Origin: Escherichia coli
GTDB taxonomy: Bacteria > Pseudomonadota > Gammaproteobacteria > Enterobacterales > Enterobacteriaceae
Length of the DNA stretch: 64,000 nt
Assembly (NCBI RefSeq): GCF_044647545.1
Contig: NZ_CP172818.1
Strand: one strand, 5' to 3'
This document shows positions 47,913-48,266 of this stretch, piece after piece. The notes under the pieces are model-generated. The model searched no databases. It had not been told where the DNA came from and saw only the letters and a program-made list of their open reading frames with translations. The number at the start of each line of letters is the position of its first letter. Position 1 is the stretch's first letter. Made by a program: the position numbers and the translations under genes.

Positions 47913-48227
47913 ATTGTTCAGTCTCTTATTATCTTTATATGCTTGATATACTTAAGGTTGTAATAAGCAAAAGAGGACTGAACTGTAAAATATAGGCGTT
48001 ATACTTTACAGCAACAGTACGCTGCTAACGCAATTGCTACCTCTGGCATAACAAGTATATCGGGTAAGGGTTTCTGTTCCGCACACGCAGGCGCAGAATA
48101 TCGTTAAGATGTCCATATTGTTGTTTTAGGCCCGCTAGTAATGCGCTACGGGTATTTAATATTGTTAAACCCTGATAATCGCTCCGGTTATTTCCGGGAT
48201 AAATGTACTACCGCAGTTACTATCATA

Positions 48228-48259
48228 GCCCCGACAATAAAACTTGCCGGGGCTTTTTT
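48228..48259 (+). terminator. Plus-strand hairpin plus T6 in the glcB-glcA intergenic region (orphan terminator, possible sRNA 3' end)
   Basis: GCCCCG...CGGGGC followed by TTTTTT on the plus strand, while both flanking genes are on the minus strand; loop is long (about 13 nt). Confidence 0.4.
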
Positions 48260-48266
48260 GACGCTA

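Follow-up and report, generated by a model that had tools for sequence, protein, structure and literature searches.

Introduction

The spacer between glcB and glcA of Escherichia coli raises a simple question: what is stopped by a terminator that faces against both of its neighbours? In the 64-kb stretch of E. coli DNA analysed here (the window), a GC-rich hairpin followed by a run of T residues lies on the plus strand between these two minus-strand genes. The original prediction saw in it an orphan terminator within one operon, ending a short transcript antisense to the glcB-glcA junction, and mentioned, with reserve, the candidate small RNA C0719 in the same spacer. We have analysed the hairpin, the RNAs that end at it and the spacer as a whole, by folding, by comparison across lineages and by reference to published transcript data.

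Results

The glcB-glcA spacer

The analysis concerns the following features:

48267-50438, minus strand: glcB, malate synthase G (open reading frame and annotation)
46230-47912, minus strand: glcA, glycolate/lactate permease (open reading frame and annotation); start codon at 47912-47910
47913-48266: glcB-glcA spacer, 354 nt
48227-48254, both strands: GC-rich hairpin (sequence and folding; conserved in four lineages)
48254-48259, plus strand: T6 tract, the U-tail of the plus-strand intrinsic terminator (sequence)

The gene names were taken from the K-12 record and from the RefSeq annotation of near-identical E. coli genomes; glcA has been described as a member of glcDEFGBA. Of 5426 genomes, 4543 contain the spacer and 4541 the 3' end of glcB together with the hairpin. 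An AT-rich stretch (45650-46250, GC 0.30-0.34) separates yghJ/sslE from the 3' end of glcA.

Two strains carry unusual forms of the locus. In E. coli PEC408 (L002, positions 1874-3047) the insertion of an IS5-family element (ISKpn26-like) has deleted glcA and most of the spacer; the insertion stops at the hairpin, which is retained together with glcB, and a type II Zorya system adjoins. In E. coli BL21 (L094, NZ_CP170101.1) a 33-nt insertion before the glcB stop codon encodes AANDENYALAA, i.e. an ssrA degradation tag fused to the C-terminus of GlcB, and the complete genome deposited is evidently that of an engineered strain.

A hairpin with a one-sided T-run

On the plus strand the hairpin reads AGCCCCG-A-CAA / TAAAAC / TTG-C-CGGGGCT (arm / loop / arm), which gives 7 bp, an A.C mismatch, 3 bp and a 6-nt loop, and the first T of the T6 tract closes the stem. 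The predicted hairpin with T6 at 48228-48259 is thus present, at 48227-48254 with the T6 tract at 48254-48259, in the form of an intrinsic terminator, i.e. a GC-rich stem-loop directly followed by at least five U residues (here six). On the minus strand the G.U pair that replaces the A.C mismatch produces 11 continuous pairs; the T6 tract becomes an A-tract located 5' of the hairpin, and 7 nt separate this tract from the glcB stop codon (TAA, minus strand, 48267-48269). The folding energy is -15.2 kcal/mol on the plus strand (z = -3.0 against dinucleotide shuffles) and -21.1 kcal/mol on the minus strand.

A standard promoter and terminator scan called nothing in the spacer: the terminator was missed because the A.C mismatch pushes the apparent loop past the 8-nt limit, and the candidate promoter described below because the hexamer rule is strict. 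A custom scan of both strands of the window for hairpins abutting at least five T residues, with a dG of -12 or lower, retrieved 17 sites, compared with 0-6 (mean about 2) in 10 shuffles; the glcB hairpin scored -14.9 and ranked 12th of the 17. A repeat or mobile element was ruled out, as the hairpin is single-copy in each E. coli genome. The window also contains a textbook two-sided terminator at 33689-33722 (ACGGGTCGCC/GGTGACCCGT; -18.7 and -15.8 kcal/mol) with an A-run and a T-run on each side, which contrasts with the one-sided T-run at glcB.

The antisense RNA C0719/ES170

The plus strand of the spacer carries the following:

47991-48212, plus strand: C0719 (Rfam RF00117), full-length covariance-model match (positions 1-222 of 222)
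47960-48259, plus strand: ES170, 300 nt, which includes C0719 (Rau et al. 2015, PMC4676190, supplementary file 2)
47944-47952, plus strand: candidate extended -10, TGaTATACT, followed by TAA (motif; putative promoter)

The suggestion of C0719 proved right: the RF00117 match scores 297.1 bits (E = 8.5e-79; gathering score 50), lies opposite the genes between glcA (yghK) and glcB, and corresponds to a plus-strand transcript in published data. The same family matches E. albertii and the enterobacterial sequences L085 and L089 in the same glcA-glcB context, and a search of Raoultella gave no match. First catalogued in 2002, C0719 was given new boundaries by RNA-seq in 2015; the current NC_000913.3 record omits it, though listing other ncRNAs. 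C0719 has been reported as "lost" in some E. coli lineages, and these reported losses match the absence of the glcB end of the locus.

A plus-strand transcript antisense to the glcB-glcA junction, as had been predicted, exists in published strand-specific RNA-seq: it is ES170, antisense to the glcB-glcA intercistronic mRNA and hence encoded on the strand opposite to the spacer of two co-transcribed genes. PMC4676190 gives, in NC_000913.2 coordinates, C0719 at 3119380-3119601 and ES170 at 3119349-3119648 (300 nt, plus strand, called "novel"). The TruSeq small-RNA libraries used there were ligation-based and are therefore strand-specific. We converted ES170 to window coordinates through the C0719 row of that table and the Rfam match; across the ES170 stretch there is no indel between K-12 and the window. 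The 3' boundary, 48259, is the final T of the T-run. The boundaries were set by a pooled coverage cutoff of 100 reads and not by end mapping, and a length as round as 300 nt calls for caution; at the U-tract the plus-strand RNA end is thus this coverage boundary, and the curated Term-seq lists considered below contain no plus-strand 3' end there. The catalogued 222-nt C0719 begins 31 nt after the 5' end of ES170 and ends 15 nt short of the hairpin, so that its array-era boundaries miss the 5' end next to the putative promoter as well as the terminator.

The 5' end of ES170 (47960) lies 8 nt downstream of TGaTATACT. With both strands considered, TGNTATAMT occurs nowhere else in the 64-kb window (2.2 occurrences expected by chance), and most lineages retain TG and a -10-like hexamer. 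We infer that this motif is the ES170 promoter. The TATACT hexamer and the following TAA presumably resemble the -10 preferred by sigma-S, and a sigma-S-like -10 would fit the reported rise of ES170 in transition phase. A literature search revealed no independent transcription start site or 3' end for ES170, and a full-text search for ES170 or for names of the glcB-glcA junction returned nothing relevant.

C0719/ES170 is of low to moderate abundance (C0719 mean expression value 45.7; means of about 37-46 for the two, versus thousands for abundant sRNAs) and was reported to be up-regulated in transition phase (PMC4676190). When a transposon was inserted at C0719, group II intron retrohoming and synthesis of the top strand fell to 17% of wild type, and overexpression of C0719 produced no biofilm or motility phenotype; the literature searched establishes no function for C0719/ES170. 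A small protein encoded on the plus strand was rejected: the only ORF of at least 30 aa starting inside ES170 (48141-48290) crosses the terminator into glcB, and indels of 2, 11 and 21 nt occur between lineages.

The 3' end of the glcB mRNA

The same hairpin is adjoined by an RNA end on the opposite strand:

48223, minus strand: dominant glcB mRNA 3' end, Term-seq, K-12 position 3121590 (Adams et al. 2021, PMC7815308, supplementary file 1)

This end lies within ...GGGGCUAUGA, 4 nt past the base of the hairpin. PMC7815308 labels 3121590 (minus) as the "primary" 3' end of glcB, antisense to C0719, and the 61-nt sequence printed in its table is identical to the window, which checks the mapping. 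Judging from row counts, the entry presumably belongs to the sheet for LB at an OD600 of about 2.0. The curated Term-seq lists of PMC7815308, which cover three conditions, have 3121590 (minus) as their sole entry in the spacer and no plus-strand 3' end there. The terminator is therefore not an orphan: on the plus strand ES170 has its coverage boundary at it, and on the minus strand it marks the 3' end of the glcB mRNA. The core of the original prediction holds, but its terms "orphan" and "one operon" are incomplete.

Past the hairpin the minus strand reads ...GGGGCUAUGAUAGUAAC and has no U-run in any lineage, so the U-tract is confined to one side. Because the minus-strand hairpin has no following U-tract, the end at 48223 probably arises by pausing, by weak termination, or by 3'-to-5' trimming, as far as the stem, of transcripts that terminate at a later point. 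The 3' ends at 48223 (minus) and 48259 (plus) overlap by 37 nt across the hairpin; they come from two different studies. Since the Term-seq end is found on the minus strand only, the hairpin is in use on the mRNA strand, and it is probably there that selection on it chiefly acts.

Conservation of the hairpin and of the spacer fold

We compared four lineages: E. coli, E. albertii, the enterobacterial lineage L085/L089 (GlcB 88% identical) and Raoultella/Klebsiella (GlcB 81%). The order glcDEFGB-spacer-glcA is shared by all four, as are the hairpin and a run of T5-T7 on its plus side, while the bases from the T-run to the stop codon differ. This conservation despite diverged flanks indicates more than a chance arrangement. 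The T-run is polymorphic among E. coli strains (T6 or T7), and is T5 in E. albertii.

The stem itself is longer in Raoultella, where one additional C:G pair is present, with the C in the 5' arm and the G in the 3' arm. Its internal mismatch on the plus strand is A.C in E. coli, C.A in E. albertii and C.A in L085/L089, in the last case reached via changes on both sides of the stem; the same positions form wobble pairs (G.U or U.G) on the minus strand. This argument covers three internal positions, and the loop-closing G.T pair favours the opposite strand. The hairpin is more stable on the minus strand in all six sequences, by 0.4-5.9 kcal/mol. The whole spacer gives the following MFE z-scores:

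E. coli (window): plus strand -2.4; minus strand -4.0
E. albertii: plus strand -1.5; minus strand -2.9
L085: plus strand -0.7; minus strand -3.9
L089: plus strand -2.1; minus strand -6.3
Raoultella: plus strand -3.4; minus strand -7.2

The RNAalifold consensus reaches -77.4 kcal/mol on the minus strand, with a covariation term of -0.48, and -63.5 kcal/mol on the plus strand, where the covariation term of +4.46 is a penalty. Mirrored pair counts, a symmetric strand test, mildly favour the minus strand and are weakly informative. The internal helices of the Rfam RF00117 model are lost in L085 and Raoultella, and a conserved structure on the sRNA strand was not found, with z = -0.99 for the ES170 fold and the covariation penalty just given. 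Taken together, the comparison suggests that RNA structure has been selected on the mRNA strand, and that the T-run has been kept for the plus strand.

Raoultella L086 has an extra perfect palindrome, GGCGCCAT-CT-ATGGCGCC, at about 6179-6225, between the glcB stop codon and the hairpin, so that glcB is followed by two stem-loops in succession. GlcB of the E. coli type is patchily distributed in Enterobacteriaceae, occurring in Escherichia, in the L085/L089 lineage and in some Raoultella/Klebsiella; beyond these the next relatives are those of Pseudomonas, at 66-69% identity. This patchy spread followed by the drop in identity suggests, from sequence comparison, that the glc cluster may have been acquired horizontally.

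Predicted structure of the glcA leader

Folding of the minus strand also predicts a helix immediately upstream of glcA:

47916-47983, minus strand: leader helix, arm 47971-47983 with arm 47916-47927 (folding)

It consists of 12 bp with one bulge (GUUCAGUcCUCUU paired with AAGAGACUGAAC; -16.5 kcal/mol, z = -2.6) and masks the glcA Shine-Dalgarno sequence (AAGAGA), reaching to 4 nt before the AUG. ES170 spans the anti-Shine-Dalgarno arm (47971-83) and not the Shine-Dalgarno arm (47916-27). Covariation is uninformative for this helix because it is near-invariant; in Raoultella the AUG is occluded instead, by a different arm (GAGCAUA : UAUGCUU). On this model, translation of glcA may be structurally restrained.

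Other parts of the leader also appear structured. Out to Raoultella, no block of the spacer is better conserved than 48064-48120. This block contains a central hairpin at 48077-48098 (minus strand; UUCUGCGC...GUGCGGAA), preceded by the invariant AUGGACAUCUUAA, and the G.U pairs of this hairpin are A-U in L085. In E. coli W24 (L003) a 6-nt tandem duplication, CGCAGG, falls within the conserved central hairpin region. An AU-rich inverted repeat at 47983-48011 (CTGTAAAATATA / TATACTTTACAG) has 12-nt arms, in which all positions that vary among E. coli and L085/L089 are G.U or U.G on the minus strand and A.C or C.A on the plus strand.

A small minus-strand ORF at 48006-48116 (MDILTIFCACVC...), which has no clear Shine-Dalgarno sequence, encodes 36 aa in Escherichia, 34 aa in a shifted frame in L085/L089 and 12 aa in Raoultella. 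A conserved peptide was rejected, as just the first ~11 codons are kept, these coincide with the RNA hairpin, and the changes within the species are all non-synonymous. The ORF is probably not a functional peptide; it might be a leader ORF.

Discussion

A probable shared hairpin for two converging transcripts

The reading that we favour, with a probability of roughly 0.6, is that one hairpin serves two converging transcripts, the glcDEFGB mRNA and C0719/ES170. On the minus strand it would set the main 3' end of the glcDEFGB mRNA, with some polymerases presumably reading through into glcA; such partial read-through would yield less permease message than enzyme message. On the plus strand the hairpin followed by U5-7 has the form of a canonical intrinsic terminator, and the T-run is the likely cause of the termination of the ~300-nt C0719/ES170, which would start at the extended -10 within the glcA leader. 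Plus-strand termination would keep antisense transcription out of glcB. Any regulatory role of the antisense RNA would be conjectural.

The hairpin might instead matter on the mRNA only, as a stabiliser of the glcB 3' end or a partial terminator, beside an incidental T-run and a plus-strand RNA that represents low-level, pervasive and unselected antisense transcription, which would stop at the hairpin by coincidence. The Term-seq end on the minus strand alone points this way, as do the better folding of hairpin and spacer on that strand in all lineages, the z of -0.99 for ES170, the RNAalifold energies (-77.4 on the minus against -63.5 on the plus strand, with its covariation penalty), the disappearance of C0719 from annotation and its low to moderate abundance. 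We nevertheless hold this explanation possible but rather doubtful. At least five T residues were kept on the plus side of the hairpin in four lineages while neighbouring bases changed, and an A-tract 5' of a hairpin has by itself no known minus-strand role; moreover, the ends of ES170 coincide with the promoter-like motif and the T-run, and the transcript is reported to increase in transition phase. The selected element of the spacer could also be a structured glcA mRNA leader, and not an sRNA, with ES170 acting on the leader. Its components would be the glcB 3' hairpin, the central hairpin (48077-98), the AU-rich hairpin (47983-48011) and the helix that hides the Shine-Dalgarno sequence; ES170 would pair with the read-through mRNA and either expose the ribosome-binding site or direct cleavage by RNase III, and synthesis of the permease would then be uncoupled from that of the glcDEFGB enzymes. 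We consider this model unlikely; if true, it would give a simple account of how the level of the permease can differ from that of the enzymes of its own operon.

That C0719/ES170 is a trans-acting sRNA, with the hairpin and U-tail as its own terminator, possibly an Hfq-binding module, and the glcB end as a by-product, is in our view improbable. The Rfam family does reach a lineage with 88% GlcB identity, the hairpin with its U6 tail is like sRNA terminators, expression depends on growth phase, and the transposon insertion cut retrohoming to 17% of wild type; that phenotype may, however, be polar or indirect, and overexpression had no phenotype in the biofilm screen. For the plus strand there is no excess of folding, broken pairs weigh against its consensus structure, its terminator stem has an A.C or C.A mismatch in three lineages, and no Hfq binding or target was found in the literature searched. 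Least credible of all is a relic, i.e. the terminator of a former convergent gene that was lost when glcA came beside glcB, with nothing consequential terminated now. The patchy distribution of glcB-type malate synthase (next relatives in Pseudomonas, 66-69%) and the spacer of 330-400 nt, unusually long for co-oriented genes, are compatible with such a history, but Raoultella/Klebsiella already have glcB-spacer-glcA complete with hairpin and T-run, so that any such event would be old and the T-run maintained since. Furthermore, there is no conserved degraded plus-strand ORF, and the lineages differ by indels of 2, 11 and 21 nt. The two-transcript reading is thus retained as the best explanation.

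The practical outcome of this reading is a correction of the annotation: the 3' end of the plus-strand RNA is better placed at the T-run (48254-48259) than at 48212, and the hairpin is common to this RNA and the glcB mRNA. In addition, what is recorded as conservation of "C0719" may largely reflect the structure of the glcB-glcA mRNA spacer. The discovery value is small: the transcript was catalogued earlier, the minus-strand 3' end can be read from published Term-seq data, and the feature is, on this reading, a two-way terminator of an ordinary kind.

Comparison with known systems

C0719 (RF00117) and ES170 occupy the same locus and strand with near-identical sequence, ES170 being the RNA-seq-bounded version. 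The terminator hairpin falls outside the RF00117 model, and the Rfam structure is drawn on the plus strand, whereas folding and conservation here favour the minus strand.

Bidirectional terminators between convergent E. coli units have been described by SEnd-seq (Ju et al. 2019), and a collision model has been proposed (bioRxiv 10.1101/2022.10.23.513370). As in those cases, the glcB hairpin lies within the overlap (37 nt) of converging 3' ends, and one direction lacks the look of a strong intrinsic terminator. In contrast to them, the converging partner is not a protein-coding unit: it is an antisense RNA, short and of low abundance, that sits between co-oriented genes of one operon, and read-through on the minus strand is needed for glcA.

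The REP stem-loops between malE and malF are intercistronic hairpins that set differential mRNA levels within an operon. The glc locus resembles them: a stable stem-loop directly follows the upstream cistron, the mRNA has a 3' end at the foot of that stem-loop, and the downstream gene relies on read-through. It differs in that the glcB hairpin occurs once in the genome and is not of the REP type, and in its T-run, by which it becomes a terminator for transcription coming from the other side.

GadY, which is cis-antisense to the gadX-gadW spacer, binds Hfq and influences how its target is processed and how stable that target is. C0719/ES170 likewise lies opposite, and is fully complementary to, the spacer of co-oriented, co-transcribed genes; its likeness to GadY is one of position, the effects on the target and the Hfq binding being those shown for GadY.
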